Shown here in pieces: positions 1 through 5,406 of a DNA stretch of 5,406 bases (position 1 is its first letter; every line of letters begins with the position of its first letter). Origin of the DNA: a virus (lineage: Duplodnaviria > Heunggongvirae > Uroviricota > Caudoviricetes). The notes under the pieces are model-generated. The model saw only the letters and a program-made list of their open reading frames with translations, was not told the DNA's origin and ran no database searches. A program made the translations under genes and the position numbers. The stretch is from positions 1-5,406 of the IMG/VR virus record IMGVR_UViG_3300028532_000031; one strand, 5' to 3'.

Positions 1-2
1 AT

Positions 3-1256
3 CCGGTACTGACGCGCCAGCTACTGATAGCAGGCGGTGCGTTGCTGGCAATGACTGCAACGATTGGCTCGTTGTCGCTGGTTATTGGGGTGCTTTACGG
101 GAAGCTGGCCACCCTGCGTCTTGGTTTTGACATTCTTACCCGGTCAATGAATGTCGTCAGGGTGTTGCCTGCGCTGTGGGGAATGCTGACGGGTTCCGTT
201 TCTTTACTGGGAGGCGCTATCGGGGCGCTGTTCAGTCCGGTTGGTCTTATCGTGGCTGCGCTTGCCGGAGCTGCTGTTCTTATCTGGAAATACTGGGATC
301 CCATCAGGGCATTTTTTGCCGGGGTGTTCAGCGGGATTATGGAAAGGCTGACCCCGTTGCGCGAAACCTTTGAACGGTTTGGTCCTGTTTTTGACGCAAT
401 CGGAAGCGGGATCAGCCAGGTGTTTAACTGGTTTAAATCGCTGCTGTCACCGATGGAGTCCAGCAAGGAAACGCTGGATAAATGTACCAGTGCTGGCGAG
501 ATATTCGGTAACGTTCTTGGTGGCGCGCTACAGCTTGTTCTGACGCCTGCAAAAATGTTGCTGGATACGCTGGCGTGGATACTTGAAAAACTCGGTGTGC
601 TTCCGGATGAAGCGGAAAGGGCGAGAAAGAAAATCGAAGACGCACAGCGTGCGGCCATTCTTCAGGACAAGGTTGCCTTGCTTCAGGGGGACCTGGCGAA
701 AATCAATCCGCCGAAGCCTGTGGAAAATAGCAATGGCACCGGAGGTGATAAACCCAAAGACAATAAACCGCTCACAGACAGCAATACCGGTACGCTGCGC
801 AGACTCAGCAAAATTGCTGATAACACAGGTAAGCTGGTTGATGAGACGAAAAAACGCATTGGCCCCGGCGATATTGTCTTTAAGAACCTGCCCCGCGCAC
901 TTGCTGTTCGTGGGGAGTGGCAGGAGCGGAAGATTGCGCAGGTCAGTAAGCCTGCCCCCGCAATTAATATCACACCCGTGGTCCCGGCTCCGCTGCCTCC
1001 GGCGCTGGTCCCTGTTGTTGCGGCCAGCTCCCGCCCGGTGGCGGAGGCCATACGATCGCCAGTGGCATCAGTTCCTGCAACTTCCCGTAACCGGGAGCCT
1101 GTTGCCTCCGGATTTGGCGGTGAAATTCATGTTCATCTGCATAACGTTGTTACGCAGAATCCCCGCGAACTGGCGAAACTGGTCGGTGAAATGGTCAGGG
1201 CAGAGGTGGAACGGCGCGCCCGTGCCGGACGTGGCAGTTTTTACGATAAAGATTGA
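3..1256 (+). CDS. Phage tail tape measure protein, C-terminal portion (5' end truncated by window edge)
   Basis: The reading frame is open from nt 3 with no in-frame stop before the window start, so the gene begins upstream; the ORF-track TTG at 42 is not a real start. Translation has long hydrophobic Gly/Ala/Leu segments (e.g. GAIGALFSPVGLIVAALAGAAVLIWKYW) and a Pro/Ala/Val-rich low-complexity stretch, as in tape measure proteins. It sits immediately upstream of a gpU-like gene, matching the P2 T-U order. Stop TGA at 1254-1256. Confidence 0.55.
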   Translation, partial: PVLTRQLLIAGGALLAMTATIGSLSLVIGVLYGKLATLRLGFDILTRSMNVVRVLPALWGMLTGSVSLLGGAIGALFSPVGLIVAALAGAAVLIWKYWDPIRAFFAGVFSGIMERLTPLRETFERFGPVFDAIGSGISQVFNWFKSLLSPMESSKETLDKCTSAGEIFGNVLGGALQLVLTPAKMLLDTLAWILEKLGVLPDEAERARKKIEDAQRAAILQDKVALLQGDLAKINPPKPVENSNGTGGDKPKDNKPLTDSNTGTLRRLSKIADNTGKLVDETKKRIGPGDIVFKNLPRALAVRGEWQERKIAQVSKPAPAINITPVVPAPLPPALVPVVAASSRPVAEAIRSPVASVPATSRNREPVASGFGGEIHVHLHNVVTQNPRELAKLVGEMVRAEVERRARAGRGSFYDKD

Positions 1257-1262
1257 GGAGTC

Positions 1263-1757
1263 ATGATCATGATGATGATCTACGGCATGTTTGTTTTTGA
1301 GCTGCGCACACTGCCGCATCAGCAGTTACAGCAAAACAAAAGCTGGCGGCATGTGAAAAATGAGCGCGTAAACCGCTCAGCAAGCTGGCAGTATATCGGT
1401 GCAGGTGATGATCGCATCGTGCTTTCTGGCGTGCTTTATCCTGAAATTACAGGTGGCGAAGTGTCGCTTTCGCTGCTGACCACGCAGGCATATACAGGAC
1501 GCCCCTGGCCTCTGATTGATGGTGTCGGGCAGATTTACGGCATGTATGTACTGACTGAAACGAATACGACCCGCTCCGAGTTTGATCGCTACGGTAAGGC
1601 GAAAAAGATAGAATTTTCACTGACTCTTGAACGCTGTGATGAGGATTTGCGGGAGCGCCTGCAATCCTCATCGTTCAGTGATATGCTGTCCGGCTTCAAA
1701 GATAAGGTCACATCATCCCTTAACAGCGCGGCCAGCTCCGTTAAAGGGCTGTTTTGA
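1263..1757 (+). CDS. P2 gpU-like phage tail protein
   Basis: 164-aa ORF with the pattern FVFELRTLPHQ...GAGDDRIVLSGVLYPEITGG...GRPWPLIDGVGQIYGMYVL, which I recognise as the phage P2 tail protein U family. GAGGAG at 1255-1260 is only 2 nt from the ATG at 1263, so the true start is more likely the ATG at 1269 or 1272. Stop TGA at 1755-1757. Confidence 0.7.
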   Translation: MIMMMIYGMFVFELRTLPHQQLQQNKSWRHVKNERVNRSASWQYIGAGDDRIVLSGVLYPEITGGEVSLSLLTTQAYTGRPWPLIDGVGQIYGMYVLTETNTTRSEFDRYGKAKKIEFSLTLERCDEDLRERLQSSSFSDMLSGFKDKVTSSLNSAASSVKGLF

Positions 1758-1764
1758 TTAACGC

Positions 1765-1794
1765 AAAACCGCTAATGGTCAGATTAGCGGTTTT
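1765..1794. terminator. Bidirectional intrinsic terminator hairpin between convergent gpU and invertase genes
   Basis: Perfect 12-bp inverted repeat AAAACCGCTAAT (1765-1776) / ATTAGCGGTTTT (1783-1794) around a 6-nt loop GGTCAG. On the plus strand it is followed by TTTTCATTTT; the A-run in the left arm gives a U-run for the minus-strand transcript. It starts 8 nt after the gpU stop and overlaps the invertase stop codon (1784-1786). Confidence 0.5.
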
Positions 1795-2383
1795 CATTTT
1801 CCTGAGTCTGCCTGGTTGTTTCTTCAGCCTGTATATCGCCTACAGGGTGATAACGATAAATCGTCGATATGCCGATGTCGTAAATGATCGCCAGTTGTTT
1901 CCTGTCATGACCGTTTTTAATCAGCCTCGCTATTTGCTCGTGTTGTTCTTTTGTCAACTTCGGGCGACGTCCGCCAATGCGTCCTTGTGCGCGTGCTGCT
2001 GCCAGTCCGGCCAGTGTACGCTCTACAATTAATTCACGTTCCATTTCGGCTAAAGCCCCCATGACGTGAAAAAAGAAACGCCCCATGGGTGTTGATGTGT
2101 CAATGCTGTCCGTCAGACTACGGAAATTAACACCTTTTTCCCGCAATTCCTCAATAAGCGTAATCAGGTGTTTCATACTTCTGCCCAGTCTGTCCAGCTT
2201 CCAGACAACCAGCGTATCTCCTTCTGATAGCGTTCTGAGCAGTTTTTTCAATCCCGGTCTGGCTGATTTCGTTCCGCTGATTTTATCTTCAAAAATCAGT
2301 TCACATCCTGCGCAGTTCAGTGCATTGCGTTGTAAATCCGTGTTCTGGTCATTTGTTGACACACGAATATAGCCAATTTGCAT
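1784..2383 (-). CDS. Serine DNA invertase (Hin/Gin/Cin/Pin family site-specific recombinase)
   Basis: 199-aa product starting MQIGYIRVSTNDQNTDLQRN, with the catalytic Ser in the RVSTNDQ motif, ...VVWKLDRLGRSMKHL..., ...SPMGRFFFHVMGALAEMERELI..., and a C-terminal helix-turn-helix (QLAIIYDIGISTIYRYHP). It is near-identical in pattern to Gin/Hin as I recall them. Start chosen at the ATG at 2383-2381 because AGAGGA (minus strand, 2397-2392) lies 8 nt upstream; the ORF-track extension to 2593 has no such support. Confidence 0.92.
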   Translation of the reverse strand: MQIGYIRVSTNDQNTDLQRNALNCAGCELIFEDKISGTKSARPGLKKLLRTLSEGDTLVVWKLDRLGRSMKHLITLIEELREKGVNFRSLTDSIDTSTPMGRFFFHVMGALAEMERELIVERTLAGLAAARAQGRIGGRRPKLTKEQHEQIARLIKNGHDRKQLAIIYDIGISTIYRYHPVGDIQAEETTRQTQENENR

Positions 2384-2397
2384 AAAAAACATCCTCT

Positions 2398-2961
2398 TTG
2401 TTTCGTGAAAAATACATAGTTGGTATAGGTAGGGATAAAAACGAAAACGTTGGTTTGGGGGAAGGCTCTGCGCTGCCCGTTGGAGTGCCCGTTCCATGGC
2501 CCTCAGCCACGCCGCCAACGGGGTGGCTGAAATGTAACGGCGCAGCATTTTCTTCTGAAGAATACCCGGAATTGGCAAAGGCTTACCCGACAAATAAATT
2601 GCCTGATTTACGCGGTGAATTTATCCGTGGCTGGGATGATGGGCGTGGTGTGGATGCGGGGAGAGCAATATTATCAGCTCAGGGCGATGCCATACGTAAT
2701 ATCTATGGTGAGTTCAGAACTGTAAATACTGAAAATTATTCAATATGGGAAGGAATGAGCACGTTTAAGGGGGCTGTGGTGCCTTTAAATCCCTCCACAA
2801 ACAATAGTTATTTCTCCTTAGTCAAAAGTATGGTGACTGAAAGGGCAGACGGCGCTGTTTACCCAAAAGTGATCGGCCTTGATGCTTCAAAAATTGTTCC
2901 AACTGCAAATGAAAATCGCCCACGCAACATTGCGTTTAATTACATCGTAAGGGCGGCATAA
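2398..2961 (+). CDS. Tail-fibre C-terminal cassette 1 (startless, promoterless alternative receptor-binding segment)
   Basis: No ATG or RBS; the ORF-track start is a TTG. Encodes a phage tail-collar-like region (PVGVPVPWPSATPPTGWLKCNGAAFSSEEYPELAKAYPTNKLPDLRGEFIRGWDDGRGVD), then a unique central segment, then the shared C-terminal end ENRPRNIAFNYIVRAA. The NIAFNYIVR-type end is one I recall from enterobacterial side tail fibre proteins. Confidence 0.75.
   Translation: MFREKYIVGIGRDKNENVGLGEGSALPVGVPVPWPSATPPTGWLKCNGAAFSSEEYPELAKAYPTNKLPDLRGEFIRGWDDGRGVDAGRAILSAQGDAIRNIYGEFRTVNTENYSIWEGMSTFKGAVVPLNPSTNNSYFSLVKSMVTERADGAVYPKVIGLDASKIVPTANENRPRNIAFNYIVRAA
2413..2440 (-). promoter_or_regulatory. 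Candidate sigma70 promoter for the invertase gene, adjacent to putative crossover site 1
   Basis: On the minus strand: -35-like TTTTAT (plus coordinates 2440-2435), 16-nt spacer, -10-like TATGTA (2418-2413), about 30 nt upstream of the invertase ATG. Both hexamers are weak matches; this is a by-eye call only. Confidence 0.25.
2444..2465 (+). other. Putative invertase crossover site (copy 1, invertase-proximal) containing the 22-bp motif AAAACGTTGGTTTGGGGGAAGG
   Basis: The motif recurs at the 5' boundary of every plus-strand cassette. Its right half GGTTTGGGGGAA is the reverse complement of TTCCCCCAAACC, which resembles the Hin/Gin half-site consensus TTnTCnAAAACC. The inner part AAAAC-G-TT-GGTTT is partly palindromic. 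Copy 1 carries an extra in-frame AAAACG immediately 5' of the motif. Confidence 0.45.
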
Positions 2962-2982
2962 AAACGTTGGTTTGGGGGAAGG
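2961..2982 (+). other. Putative invertase crossover site (copy 2), AAAACGTTGGTTTGGGGGAAGG
   Basis: Exact repeat of the 22-bp motif, 517 bp after copy 1. It overlaps the stop codon of cassette 1 and begins the cassette 2 reading frame. Confidence 0.45.
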
Positions 2983-3433
2983 CTCTGCGCTGCCCGTTGG
3001 TGTACCTGTTCCATGGCCCTCAGCCACACCGCCAACGGGGTGGCTAAAATGTAACGGAGCAGCATTTTCTTCTGAAAAATACCCCAAACTGGCAAAGGCT
3101 TACCCAACGTTAAAATTACCGGATTTACGGGGTGAGTTTATCCGTGGCTGGGATGACGGACGTGGTGTGGATGCCGGGCGACAATTATTATCTTCACAGG
3201 GGGATGCAATAAGAAATATTGAGGGGTTCGCAGATGGCGGGATCGGCATGTCTTTTGATGCAATCAGAGGGGCTTTTTACGATGCAGGAACACGATCTGC
3301 GAGAATGCCGAATAACACAACTGATATAGGCAAAACCGATGACCTTGGATTCGACGCCTCTCGTGTCGTGCCAACAGCTAATGAAAACCGTCCTCGTAAT
3401 ATTGCCTTTAATTATATCGTAAGGGCGGCATAA
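2972..3433 (+). CDS. Tail-fibre C-terminal cassette 2 (startless)
   Basis: Same architecture as cassette 1: conserved collar-like 5' part, divergent middle (…GFADGGIGMSFDAIRGAFYDAGTRSARMPNNTTDIGKTDDLGFDASR…), conserved end ENRPRNIAFNYIVRAA. Begins in frame within motif copy 2; the ORF-track start is a TTG. Confidence 0.75.
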   Translation: MGEGSALPVGVPVPWPSATPPTGWLKCNGAAFSSEKYPKLAKAYPTLKLPDLRGEFIRGWDDGRGVDAGRQLLSSQGDAIRNIEGFADGGIGMSFDAIRGAFYDAGTRSARMPNNTTDIGKTDDLGFDASRVVPTANENRPRNIAFNYIVRAA

Positions 3434-3454
3434 AAACGTTGGTTTAGGGGAAGG
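3433..3454 (+). other. Putative invertase crossover site (copy 3), AAAACGTTGGTTTAGGGGAAGG (one substitution)
   Basis: One-mismatch copy of the motif, 472 bp after copy 2, overlapping the stop codon of cassette 2 at the boundary with cassette 3. Confidence 0.4.
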
Positions 3455-3473
3455 TTCGGCGCTGCCTGTTGGT

Positions 3474-3911
3474 GTGGCCGTTCCATGGCCCTCAGCCACG
3501 CTGCCAGCGGGGTGGTTGAAATGTAACGGCGCAGCATTTTCTTCTGAAATGTACCCCAATCTGGCAAAGGCCTACCCCACCAATAAATTACCGGATTTAC
3601 GGGGCGAATTTATTCGCGGCTGGGATGACGGACGGGGCGTTGATAATGGGCGCAACCTACTGTCTGCACAGTCTGACGCTATTCAGAATATAGTTGGCAC
3701 TTTTGGGCGTACTCAGCTTTTTAAAGATGCGTTTAATTCAGGACCATTTAGTCAAACTGACTCTATATTATCAGTAGGCTTACAACCAACTGAGATCATT
3801 GAAGGATATGGTGCTTCTGTATGGACATTCGACGCCTCTCGCTCAGTTCGCACAGCATCTGAAACACGCCCCCATAACATTGCGTTTAATTACATCGTAA
3901 GGGCAGCATGA
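3474..3911 (+). CDS. Tail-fibre C-terminal cassette 3 (startless)
   Basis: Same architecture; divergent middle (…GTFGRTQLFKDAFNSGPFSQTDSILSVGLQPTEIIEGYGASVWTFDASR…); ends ETRPHNIAFNYIVRAA. The in-frame reading extends back through motif copy 3 (KNVGLGEGSALPVGV…); the ORF-track start is a GTG. Confidence 0.75.
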   Translation: MAVPWPSATLPAGWLKCNGAAFSSEMYPNLAKAYPTNKLPDLRGEFIRGWDDGRGVDNGRNLLSAQSDAIQNIVGTFGRTQLFKDAFNSGPFSQTDSILSVGLQPTEIIEGYGASVWTFDASRSVRTASETRPHNIAFNYIVRAA

Positions 3912-3932
3912 AAACGTTGGTTTGGGGGAAGG
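3911..3932 (+). other. Putative invertase crossover site (copy 4), AAAACGTTGGTTTGGGGGAAGG
   Basis: Exact copy of the motif, 478 bp after copy 3, overlapping the TGA stop of cassette 3 at the boundary with cassette 4. Confidence 0.45.
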
Positions 3933-4380
3933 CTCTGCGCTGCCCGTTGGTGTACCTGTTCCATGGCCCTTAGAAACACCGCCAACGGGGTGGCTGAAAT
4001 GTAACGGCGCAGCATTTTCTTCTGAAATGTATCCCAGACTGGCAAAGGCCTACCCCACCAATAAATTACCGGATTTACGGGGTGAATTTATTCGCGGCTG
4101 GGATGATGGGCGCGGGGTGGATGCCGGAAGGGGCATCTTAAGCATGCAGGGGTGGTTAACAGGAAGTCATTATCATAATATTCGGTCATGGGATGCGTGG
4201 GATAACACGGTACTGGTGCCAAATGACAAAGGAGGGGATAGTCTGTTGTCGACAGATAACGCCGTCCGGCAAGGTGCAATTAACGGTAGATTTACCAGTC
4301 AATACAGAACGGAATCCTCAGAGGGGAATGAAACCCGCCCACGCAATATTGCCTTCAATTATATTGTGAGAACCGCATAA
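3922..4380 (+). CDS. Tail-fibre C-terminal cassette 4 (startless), translationally coupled to the tail fibre assembly gene
   Basis: Same architecture; divergent aromatic/His-rich middle (…GWLTGSHYHNIRSWDAWDNTVLVPNDKGGDSLLSTDNAVRQGAINGRFTSQYR…); ends ETRPRNIAFNYIVRTA. Its TAA stop (4378-4380) overlaps the ATG of the next gene (TAATG). Confidence 0.75.
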   Translation: MGEGSALPVGVPVPWPLETPPTGWLKCNGAAFSSEMYPRLAKAYPTNKLPDLRGEFIRGWDDGRGVDAGRGILSMQGWLTGSHYHNIRSWDAWDNTVLVPNDKGGDSLLSTDNAVRQGAINGRFTSQYRTESSEGNETRPRNIAFNYIVRTA

Positions 4381-4991
4381 TGAATAACGCGATATTAAAT
4401 GATGACCTTATTGCCGTACAGGCAGGAAACATCGTCGTTTATAACTATGATGGTGAGACACGGGAATATATTTCCGAATCAACTGAATATCTTGCTGCGG
4501 GTGTCGGTATTCCGGCAAATTCCTGTTTAGATGCCCCGGGCGCACATAAAGCGGGCTATGCTATCCGCCGTTCGGAGAATTTAAATTCATGGGAGTATAC
4601 GCCAGATCATCGTGGTGAAACCGTCTATAGCACTGATACGGGAAACACCGAAGAAATCACGACGCTGGGTGACTACCCGAAAAATACAACCACTATCGCC
4701 CCGTTAACACCATACGATAAATGGGATGGTGAAAAATGGGTGACGGATACCGAGGCACAGCATAGCGCCGCAGTAGAAGCGGCAGAAACACAGCGCCAGT
4801 CGCTGATTGATACTGCAATGGCTTCCATTAGTCTGATTCAGTTGAAGTTGCAGGCCGGGCGGAAGTTGACGCAGGCAGAAACCACCCGGCTTAACGCCGT
4901 GCTGGATTATATAGACGCACTGAACGCAATGGATATAAACATGGCATCAGATATCAACTGGCCGGAAATACCACTGGCAGCAGCCAGTTGA
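4380..4991 (+). CDS. Tail fibre assembly protein (Tfa chaperone; P2 gpG / Mu U-like role)
   Basis: 203-aa ORF directly downstream of and overlapping a tail-fibre cassette, the classic fibre-chaperone position. The C-terminus has the Tfa-like …DINWPEIP… pattern. Family assignment is from position and recalled motif, not a search. Confidence 0.65.
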   Translation: MNNAILNDDLIAVQAGNIVVYNYDGETREYISESTEYLAAGVGIPANSCLDAPGAHKAGYAIRRSENLNSWEYTPDHRGETVYSTDTGNTEEITTLGDYPKNTTTIAPLTPYDKWDGEKWVTDTEAQHSAAVEAAETQRQSLIDTAMASISLIQLKLQAGRKLTQAETTRLNAVLDYIDALNAMDINMASDINWPEIPLAAAS

Positions 4992-4997
4992 ATATAA

Positions 4998-5406
4998 CTA
5001 AGCCGCCCTCACGATATAGTTAAATGCAATATTGCGGGGGCGGGTTTCACTACCACCTGTGTTACCAATACTTCCTCGTGAATGAAGCGTTGGTGATGGA
5101 ATCAAACTCCCTCCTGTATTTGTGGCATCAAGCCCCCTGCCTTGTGTATATGTTTTTTTGAAAATCGTGGCCAACTCCCATTCATCCTTTGTGTCATATC
5201 CATCGTTAGCTACAACAATATGGCGGTGTTTTTCCAACATCCCGGTTTGAATGCTCAATAAAGCGCGTGCTGCATCAATTCCTCGCCCATCATCCCAGCC
5301 ACGAATAAATTCACCCCGTAAATCCGGTAATTTATTGGTGGGGTAGGCCTTTGCCAGTCTGGGATACATTTCAGAAGAAAATGCTGCGCCGTTACATTTC
5401 AGCCAC
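4998..5406 (-). CDS. Tail-fibre C-terminal cassette 5, inverted orientation; 5' end continues beyond the right window edge
   Basis: The minus-strand frame is open to the window end and reads …WLKCNGAAFSSEMYPRLAKAYPTNKLPDLRGEFIRGWDDGRGID…, then a unique middle, then SETRPRNIAFNYIVRAA with stop TAG (plus 4998-5000). The ORF-track start at M5369 is internal. The first 123 nt are the reverse complement of cassette 4 (3990-4112) with one mismatch. Confidence 0.8.
   Translation of the reverse strand, partial: WLKCNGAAFSSEMYPRLAKAYPTNKLPDLRGEFIRGWDDGRGIDAARALLSIQTGMLEKHRHIVVANDGYDTKDEWELATIFKKTYTQGRGLDATNTGGSLIPSPTLHSRGSIGNTGGSETRPRNIAFNYIVRAA

Follow-up and report, generated by a model that had tools for sequence, protein, structure and literature searches.

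Five tail fibre cassettes in a 5,406-nt stretch of a Caudoviricetes genome (IMG/VR record IMGVR_UViG_3300028532_000031, positions 1 to 5,406; the whole stretch is called the window below) are very probably exchangeable 3' ends of one fibre gene, with heads inserted in a split collar domain, both ends of that domain under purifying selection, and a single tail fibre assembly protein (Tfa) associated with the collar. The locus is a Min/Pin-type multiple-inversion region in a P88-like (P2-related) prophage. Its order along the window is a P2 gpU-family gene, a serine DNA invertase gene on the minus strand, four tandem collar open reading frames (ORFs) on the plus strand (cassettes c1 to c4), tfa, and a fifth collar ORF (c5) on the minus strand. 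In every cassette a conserved N-terminal part (N-part) and a conserved segment of 16 residues at the C-terminal end (C-end) enclose a variable segment, referred to here as the middle. We propose that the N-part and the last 16 residues form the two halves of one collar domain (PF07484), and that the middle would be a small receptor-binding head inserted in it.

The cassettes were aligned to define these segments. c1 comprises an N-part, the putative first half of the collar domain (Collar PF07484, E 1.4e-15), at 2452..2682, a 76-residue middle of the DAIRNI class at 2683..2910, and the C-end ENRPRNIAFNYIVRAA plus stop codon at 2911..2961, the C-end being placed by PDB sequence and profile matches as well as by alignment. 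c2 (2969..3433) has its N-part at 2969-3199, a middle of 61 aa (DAIRNI class) at 3200-3382, its C-end at 3383-3430 and its stop at 3431-3433; c3 (3441..3911) has its N-part at 3441-3671, a middle of 63 aa (DAIQNI class) at 3672-3860, its C-end at 3861-3908 and its stop at 3909-3911; and c4 (3919..4380) has its N-part at 3919-4149, a middle of 60 aa (HxH class) at 4150-4329, its C-end at 4330-4377 and its stop at 4378-4380. These four lie on the plus strand. c5 lies on the minus strand (4998..5406), with N-part 5406-5247, middle 5246-5049 (66 aa, HxH class), C-end 5048-5001 and stop 5000-4998; it is broken off by the window end about 26 codons into the N-part, and inverted repeats I1-I4 match it to the N-parts of c1-c4. 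A preliminary description had placed the cassettes at 2650-4330, a span that holds four of them and leaves out c5. Downstream of the crossover site (or, for c5, of the window end) all five reading frames stay open as far as the conserved stop, and none is truncated.

The alignment confirmed a conserved-variable-conserved pattern. From WLKCNG to LSxQ, 44 of 53 columns are invariant among the five cassettes, as are 13 of the last 16 (E[NT]RP[RH]NIAFNYIVR[AT]A), in agreement with the earlier proposal that all five share these two parts. Measured from LSxQ, the middles of c1-c5 are 76, 61, 63, 60 and 66 aa long; measured from GRG[VI]D to the last 16 residues, the boundaries used in the preliminary description, the variable part is 69-85 aa, which its 'roughly 70-90' describes fairly. 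The two sequences it quoted as examples were located, GSHYHNIRSWDAWDN in c4 and GFADGGIGMSFDAIRGAFYDAG in c2. The middles were compared pairwise by Smith-Waterman alignment against 500 shuffles, and nine of the ten pairs scored at or near noise (z -1.0 to 2.8). The sole outlier, c1/c2 (z = 8.2), owes its score to a 13-residue edge motif, [IL]G[LF]DAS[KR].VPTAN. The entry-edge motif GDAI[RQ]NI.G is also common to c1-c3, while c4 and c5 have HxH instead (4168-4176 in c4; 5228-5220 on the minus strand in c5). To call the middles mutually unalignable was a slight overstatement for c1-c3, which share edge motifs.

All five cassettes match Pfam Collar PF07484 (35-58 bits, cut-off 24) and PHROG 523, 'tail collar fiber protein' (E 1e-58 to 1e-77). 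PDB searches by sequence and by profile placed the two conserved ends separately in the tip of T4 gp37 (2XGF): the N-part aligns to positions 27-110 of the 242-residue chain, and the C-end aligns to positions 224-242, at the very C-terminus, with NIAFNYIVR identical. We take the 2XGF chain to be gp37 785-1026, a span that its 242-residue length fits, in which case the matched pieces are approximately 811-894 and 1008-1026 of gp37. T4 gp12 was likewise matched in two pieces, 340-404 and the C-terminal NETRPWNISLNYIIK at 499-524 of 527, which puts the motif 3 residues from the gp12 end. In the published structures, domain D10 of gp37 consists of residues 811-881 plus 1010-1026 and has the gp12 collar fold, with the needle domain D11 as an insertion into it (PMC6957217); the fibre chain doubles back to the collar (PMC12609058), and the collar of gp12 comprises residues 342-397 (PMC3004832). 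Given the two-piece match to gp37 D10 and to gp12, the conserved-variable-conserved pattern can be read as the linear image of a domain with an inserted domain. Homology and these published descriptions together argue that the cassettes have the split-domain topology of gp37 and gp12, in which the chain would exit the collar, form the head, and return to complete the collar with the C-terminal segment. The middles are putative heads, and receptor binding would be their function.

A further resemblance to gp37 lies at the point of entry into the middle. In all 22 HxH-type middles, which include c4 and c5 and come from many species, HxH stands at an offset of 6 after LSxQ, in register with the first HxH of gp37 (KAHSH). 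The shared register suggests a putative metal site on the trimer axis. Across the cassettes of loci L001-L082, 22 middles are of the HxH class, 68 are of the 'DAIRNI' type and 20 are neither. The best PDB sequence match to the cassettes was 9CUY, the phiTE short tail fibre, in which the whole module of collar, insert and C-end lies mid-protein (chain c residues 154-304 of 554) and the C-end motif is internal (290-304); the motif is therefore not always terminal. The library proteins P0253, P0281, P0296 and P0326 contain three to four collar N-part motifs and no C-end motif.

The pattern extends well beyond the window. A scan of one genome per species gave 80 loci, mostly from Enterobacterales (Photorhabdus, Xenorhabdus, Yersinia, Pectobacterium, Pantoea), and these were combined with the window and one E. 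coli locus into a single cassette set. Of the 113 cassettes of this set that have a C-end, 110 have exactly 2 residues between it and the stop. In these 110 intact cassettes the consensus of the C-end is ENRPRNIAFNYIVRAA, with most positions at least 90% conserved, and the middles, of 45-90 aa, form 24 clusters by similarity: c1-c3 in the largest, loose cluster, c4 and c5 in two small ones. When a library of 1.84 billion cluster representatives was searched with the cassette profile, 8,339 representatives matched at E <= 1e-10, and in 117 of the 149 top cluster representatives the C-end motif lies at most 3 residues from the C-terminus. The c1 type alone is found in more than 120 protein clusters, 88-99% conserved. 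Large numbers of proteins that carry the names E. coli, Salmonella or E. albertii contain the c1 and c2 types at 88-99% amino acid identity; the c2 middle is 100% identical in Escherichia sp. MOD1-EC7003, a protein 99% identical to c2 (P0148) is present on 524 contigs, and c3 has orthologues in four E. coli loci. Many database copies of the cassettes are labelled 'integrase' by their source (P0008, P0086, P0182, P0203, P0209, P0229 and others), probably through annotation transferred from the adjoining invertase.

The machinery for exchanging the cassettes is encoded at the locus. The invertase, of the Hin/Gin/Cin/Pin/Min family, has 199 aa (1784..2383, minus strand, start MQIGYIRVSTNDQ) and contains the Resolvase (PF00239, E 3e-51) and HTH_7 (PF02796, E 2e-12) domains; its orthologues are annotated as recombinase or DNA invertase. 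Four direct 26-bp crossover sites of the form ...AAAACG TT GGTTT[AG]GGGGAA, recognized by sequence and pattern, stand in one reading phase at the 5' edge of each plus-strand cassette: site 1, AAAACGAAAACG TT GGTTTGGGGGAA, at 2438..2463 (core TT 2450-2451), site 2 at 2955..2980 (core TT 2967-2968), site 3 at 3427..3452 (core TT 3439-3440) and site 4 at 3905..3930 (core TT 3917-3918). Sites 2-4 each contain the stop codon of the preceding cassette, in site 2 that of c1. Diverse invertase loci have the motif of site 1 ahead of their first cassette, and 18 invertase loci besides the window contain similar sites. The expressed fibres of four orthologous loci share a constant part of 378 residues, and the junction falls between ...VLDYL and GLGEGS. 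The predicted inverted partner site of the window must lie about 75 nt past the window end. The serine invertase would recombine the 26-bp sites at the cassette edges with the inverted site in the expressed gene, so that the constant part of 378 codons could be continued in frame by any cassette.

Related loci provide evidence that such exchange takes place. They contain 2, 3, 4, 4, 5, 6 and 7 cassettes, and nine in a Klebsiella P1-like plasmid, always with one tfa; related E. coli prophages and P1-like plasmids hold differing subsets of the same discrete cassette types. A block made up of a c4-type cassette, tfa and a c5-type cassette in tail-to-tail orientation is present in all of them, and the c4-type cassette lies immediately 5' of tfa, both in the window and wherever a related locus has the two of them intact. 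The orientation of this block was counted in complete E. coli genomes by paired searches, with the invertase plus tfa and with the invertase plus reverse-complemented tfa, and the two orientations occurred in 83 and 78 genomes. An apparent bias, with tfa directed against the fibre gene in 8 of 8 related loci, was discarded as an ascertainment effect of searching with the whole window, since these neutral searches gave 83 versus 78. In E. coli GPEC1031, a relative with the flipped arrangement, the c1 type is joined to the constant part and is the expressed tip. For a multi-inversion locus in a P2-like prophage of EPEC E2348/69, sequencing and PCR revealed four variants side by side (PMC4272514); we take this locus to be our orthologue L091, with which it agrees in the sizes of the inversions and the number of repeats. 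Inversion thus occurs in relatives, as both orientations, GPEC1031 and the EPEC PCR data indicate, and is predicted for the window sequence itself by analogy with them. The preliminary description had interpreted the cassettes as swapped tips, an idea that gains support from the Hin-family sites and invertase, the cassette subsets, the natural isomers and the EPEC inversions. The largest set seen is that of pMCR_SCKP-LL83, the Klebsiella P1-like plasmid (L092, 4100-9000), with nine intact collar-type cassettes, one tfaE and a pin-like invertase; the plasmid's name suggests mcr-1 carriage.

The only tfa of the window (4380..4991, plus strand) encodes a 203-residue protein assigned to Caudo_TAP PF02413 (E 1e-33, residues 78-198) and PHROG 105. 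Its start codon overlaps the stop codon of c4 as TAATG (4378-4382) and has no evident Shine-Dalgarno sequence; the overlap suggests translational coupling of c4 and tfa. To relate Tfa to the parts of the cassettes, we examined co-variation in 50 distinct pairs of neighbouring cassette and Tfa with a Mantel test. Similarity of the Tfa N-domain did not follow similarity of the middle (r -0.06). It did follow that of the collar N-part, with r 0.50 and, once the Tfa C-domain was controlled for, a partial r of 0.37 (Mantel p 0.001); there are Tfa N-domains with 79% identity to that of the window although the adjoining middles are only 21% identical. In the loci analysed, 55 Tfas that align to the window Tfa over the N-domain follow a collar-type tip. 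Another 15 align over the C-domain only; 14 of these follow a typable tip, and none of the 14 tips is of the collar type. Internal controls are provided by several of the 14, each of which is the partner Tfa within the same two-state segment. These data fit a Tfa subfamily that goes with the collar, whatever the head, and do not single out the C-end; the association is correlative. As this N-domain subfamily occurs only beside collar-type tips, with any head, Tfa probably docks on the collar, and a collar-docking Tfa would let one chaperone serve all heads. Carried further, the split collar may be a universal socket, in which the Tfa subfamily recognises the N-part and C-end and folds any head of about 45-90 aa; we offer this extension tentatively, as somewhat less likely than not. 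If true, it would account for loci in which a single tfa accompanies as many as nine heads, and the collar would be a natural, portable scaffold for host-range engineering.

Several observations weigh against the split collar and its associated Tfa. Monomer AlphaFold2 models had a pLDDT of 48.7 for c2 (45 sequences) and 38.5 for c4 (99 sequences), and the return of the chain to the collar in three dimensions is, for the cassette proteins, a prediction from homologues. 9CUY is modelled only for residues 3-92 (PMC11972413), outside the region that matches the cassettes, and was therefore dropped as a full-length structural template. The C-end varies too little for the co-variation test (r about 0.1, p 0.05-0.09), the loci were ascertained via collar cassettes and the Tfas via homology to the window Tfa, and the Tfa-collar association could reflect co-inheritance instead of contact. 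The position of c5 raises a separate difficulty. c5 lies tail-to-tail with tfa, 6 nt apart (4989-5000), with no crossover site between them; it is therefore never co-oriented with tfa, and tfa must be antisense whenever c5 is expressible. The supply of Tfa when c5 is expressed, and in half of the states overall, is not accounted for by the model, and if the collar is a socket for one Tfa, then tfa would have to be expressed independently of orientation. Read-through from the tail operon was considered as a source of tfa expression in the plus orientation and is argued against by a terminator-like hairpin after gpU (1765-1794). A sigma-70 promoter scan gave a number of matches no higher than in shuffled sequence.

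It is also conceivable, if unlikely, that the C-end is mainly a docking peptide for the single Tfa and is conserved for that interaction rather than for its fold, an idea raised in the preliminary description. One Tfa for at least five tips at the locus would fit such a peptide, as would the strict occurrence of the Tfa N-domain family with tips bearing the C-end motif (55, compared with 0 of 14). The passage of PMC9608196 that summarises North et al. (2019) describes the variable N-domain of TFA proteins as binding the distal fibre and the conserved C-domain as driving trimerisation. On the other side, the motif is terminal in T4 gp37 and stands 3 residues from the end of gp12. T4 folds both of these fibres by means of gp57A and gp38 and uses no PF02413 Tfa for them; the presence of the motif there implies that the C-end is not a peptide specific to this Tfa. 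The motif residues of gp37 belong to the collar domain D10 (PMC6957217), the motif is internal in the phiTE short tail fibre (290-304 of 554), and the Tfa N-domain co-varies with the collar N-part and weakly with the C-end. Of the proposal that the C-end is a shared chaperone element, what stands is that one Tfa subfamily tracks collar tips and ignores the middle; that the same motif also ends T4 fibres tells against the rest, and we prefer to see the C-end as the second half of the collar.

The conserved ends might instead be kept at the DNA level, as homology arms for gene conversion or exchange, or through overlap with the next crossover site. In c1-c3 the stop and last two codons do lie inside the next 26-bp site, and the direct repeat family D2 spans the cassette 3' ends. 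There are also signs of exchange: compared with L003, L086, L088, L090 and L092, orthologous cassettes are 81-96% identical in the 156 nt by the crossover site and 97-100% identical in the middle and C-end, a gradient that suggests that the repeated N-parts swap sequence among cassettes. The proportions of synonymous (pS) and non-synonymous (pN) differences nevertheless make DNA-level conservation highly improbable. Among the five window cassettes, the 16 codons of the C-end have a pS of 0.68 and a pN of 0.04, and the N-part has a pS of 0.49 and a pN of 0.09. With synonymous sites of the C-end near saturation and replacements almost nil, the ends must be old, and what keeps them is purifying selection at the protein level rather than gene conversion or some signal in the DNA; DNA-level conservation of the C-end was rejected on this basis. 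Moreover, c4 and c5 retain the C-end motif though no crossover site lies downstream of them, and conservation of the motif extends throughout Enterobacterales and to T4.

The same measure was applied to orthologous cassettes of E. coli loci, giving a pN/pS of 0.16 pooled for the middle (range 0-0.43), 0.06 for the N-part and 0.07 for the C-end; these are whole-segment values, with which a few positively selected positions remain compatible. A within-type pN/pS of 0.16 for the middles indicates purifying selection and does not bear out the diversifying selection that had been proposed for the tips. The diversity of the middles lies between old, discrete types and is not one of ongoing point substitution; conserved modules are shuffled. 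In the mechanism proposed here, protein-level purifying selection keeps the conserved ends, and the middles are old types, each conserved in itself and reassorted between loci. That the silent cassettes are decaying remnants whose middles differ by neutral drift is the least credible explanation, for although decay is seen in some lysogens (a truncated fibre in O55:H7 CB9615, frameshifts in 14EC047 and a cassette fusion in P0121), all five window cassettes are intact and in phase with the sites, the within-type pN/pS is 0.16, and these types are met again, with 88-99% identity, in proteins bearing the names E. coli, Salmonella and E. albertii and also in a Klebsiella P1-like plasmid.

The components of this arrangement have precedents. 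T4 gp37 (2XGF) resembles the cassettes in that the N-part and C-end fall on its two D10 segments, NIAFNYIVR is terminal, and HxH of c4 and c5 is in register; unlike them, it is served by gp38 and gp57A, has an insert of about 128 aa rather than 60-76 aa and is not itself an inversion cassette, and c1-c3 are without HxH. T4 gp12 (PDB 1OCY, 1H6W, 5IV5) shares the two-piece match, but with a weaker similarity (E about 1e-6), another head domain and no inversion. Alike in genetic organization are p15B Min and P1-like phage-plasmids, which also have a serine invertase, more than two crossover sites, alternative fibre 3' ends and one tfa; P1-like plasmids are 88-89% identical in nucleotide sequence to the window region and carry the same cassette types, up to 9 of them. 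They differ in that the replicon is a P1-like plasmid and not a P2-like prophage, and in the set of cassettes. The Min multiple-inversion system of p15B was reportedly described by Sandmeier, Iida and Arber in 1992, a reference that PMC4987407 lists. The EPEC E2348/69 locus, taken as L091, is 95.6% identical to the window over 85% of its length (Goldberg et al., 2014; PMC4272514). Three repeats are present there, and the inversions measure about 1.8 and 2.2 kb, sizes that the three sites of L091 predict; the locus has three cassettes compared with at least five here; the domain architecture of the cassettes lay outside that paper's analysis (PMC4272514).

The G segment of Mu with Gin, the C segment of P1 with Cin, and the segments of P88 and pro483 share the recombinase family and the swap of fibre 3' ends, but have two states only, and each tip has its own Tfa; in two-state loci the Tfa of the non-collar partner tip has an unrelated N-domain. 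The R64 shufflon (Rci, pilV) likewise uses multiple inversions to choose one of several adhesin C-terminal ends. That system employs a tyrosine recombinase and targets a pilus gene; because the window encodes no recombinase other than the serine invertase, the locus is not an R64-type shufflon. A collar with an inserted head is therefore already known from T4, and multi-cassette inversion from p15B Min and the EPEC P2-like prophage; the locus is another case of a known kind of system. Our analysis defines precisely where many unrelated heads have been swapped in nature, with one junction after LSxQ and the other before E[NT]RPRN, and adds selection on the ends at the protein and not the DNA level and a comparative link of a Tfa subfamily to the collar rather than to the head. 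If the Tfa-collar link is true, these junctions plus Tfa would constitute a ready-made chassis with which P2-like and P1-like phages and tailocins could be retargeted.

The remainder of the window is of P88 type. Over its left 2.4 kb it shares 92% identity with Escherichia phage P88 (Xuanwuvirus, Peduoviridae), and the top overall matches are P88-like prophages of E. coli; the prophage of O55:H7 CB9615 is 96% identical over 87% of the window, with a different arrangement. The 3' end of a tape-measure gene (42-1256) is followed by the gpU-family gene (1263-1757, PF06995). A hairpin with a 12-bp stem (AAAACCGCTAATGGTCAGATTAGCGGTTTT) at 1765-1794 is flanked by an A-run and, on the opposite side, a T-run. 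Situated between the stop codons of gpU (1757) and the invertase (1784), it is a candidate bidirectional intrinsic terminator for these convergent genes. Between the invertase start and crossover site 1 there is a dyad, TGTTTCGTGAAAAATACA (TGT-N12-ACA, 2399-2416), of the form that we take to be the P2 late-promoter activator motif. The dyad is no evidence for a P2-type late promoter at 2399-2416: the window has 2 matches where 1.3 are expected, and the dyad is kept only in near-identical relatives.

Finally, some related loci and proteins show individual alterations. In O55:H7 CB9615 the expressed fibre ends at 452 aa, within the collar (L001, 11180-12535), and the 14EC047 locus (L087, 5442-9043) has many frameshifts, those in tfa and the tape-measure gene included. 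In P0121 a c5-type cassette, itself truncated, is fused in frame to another cassette.

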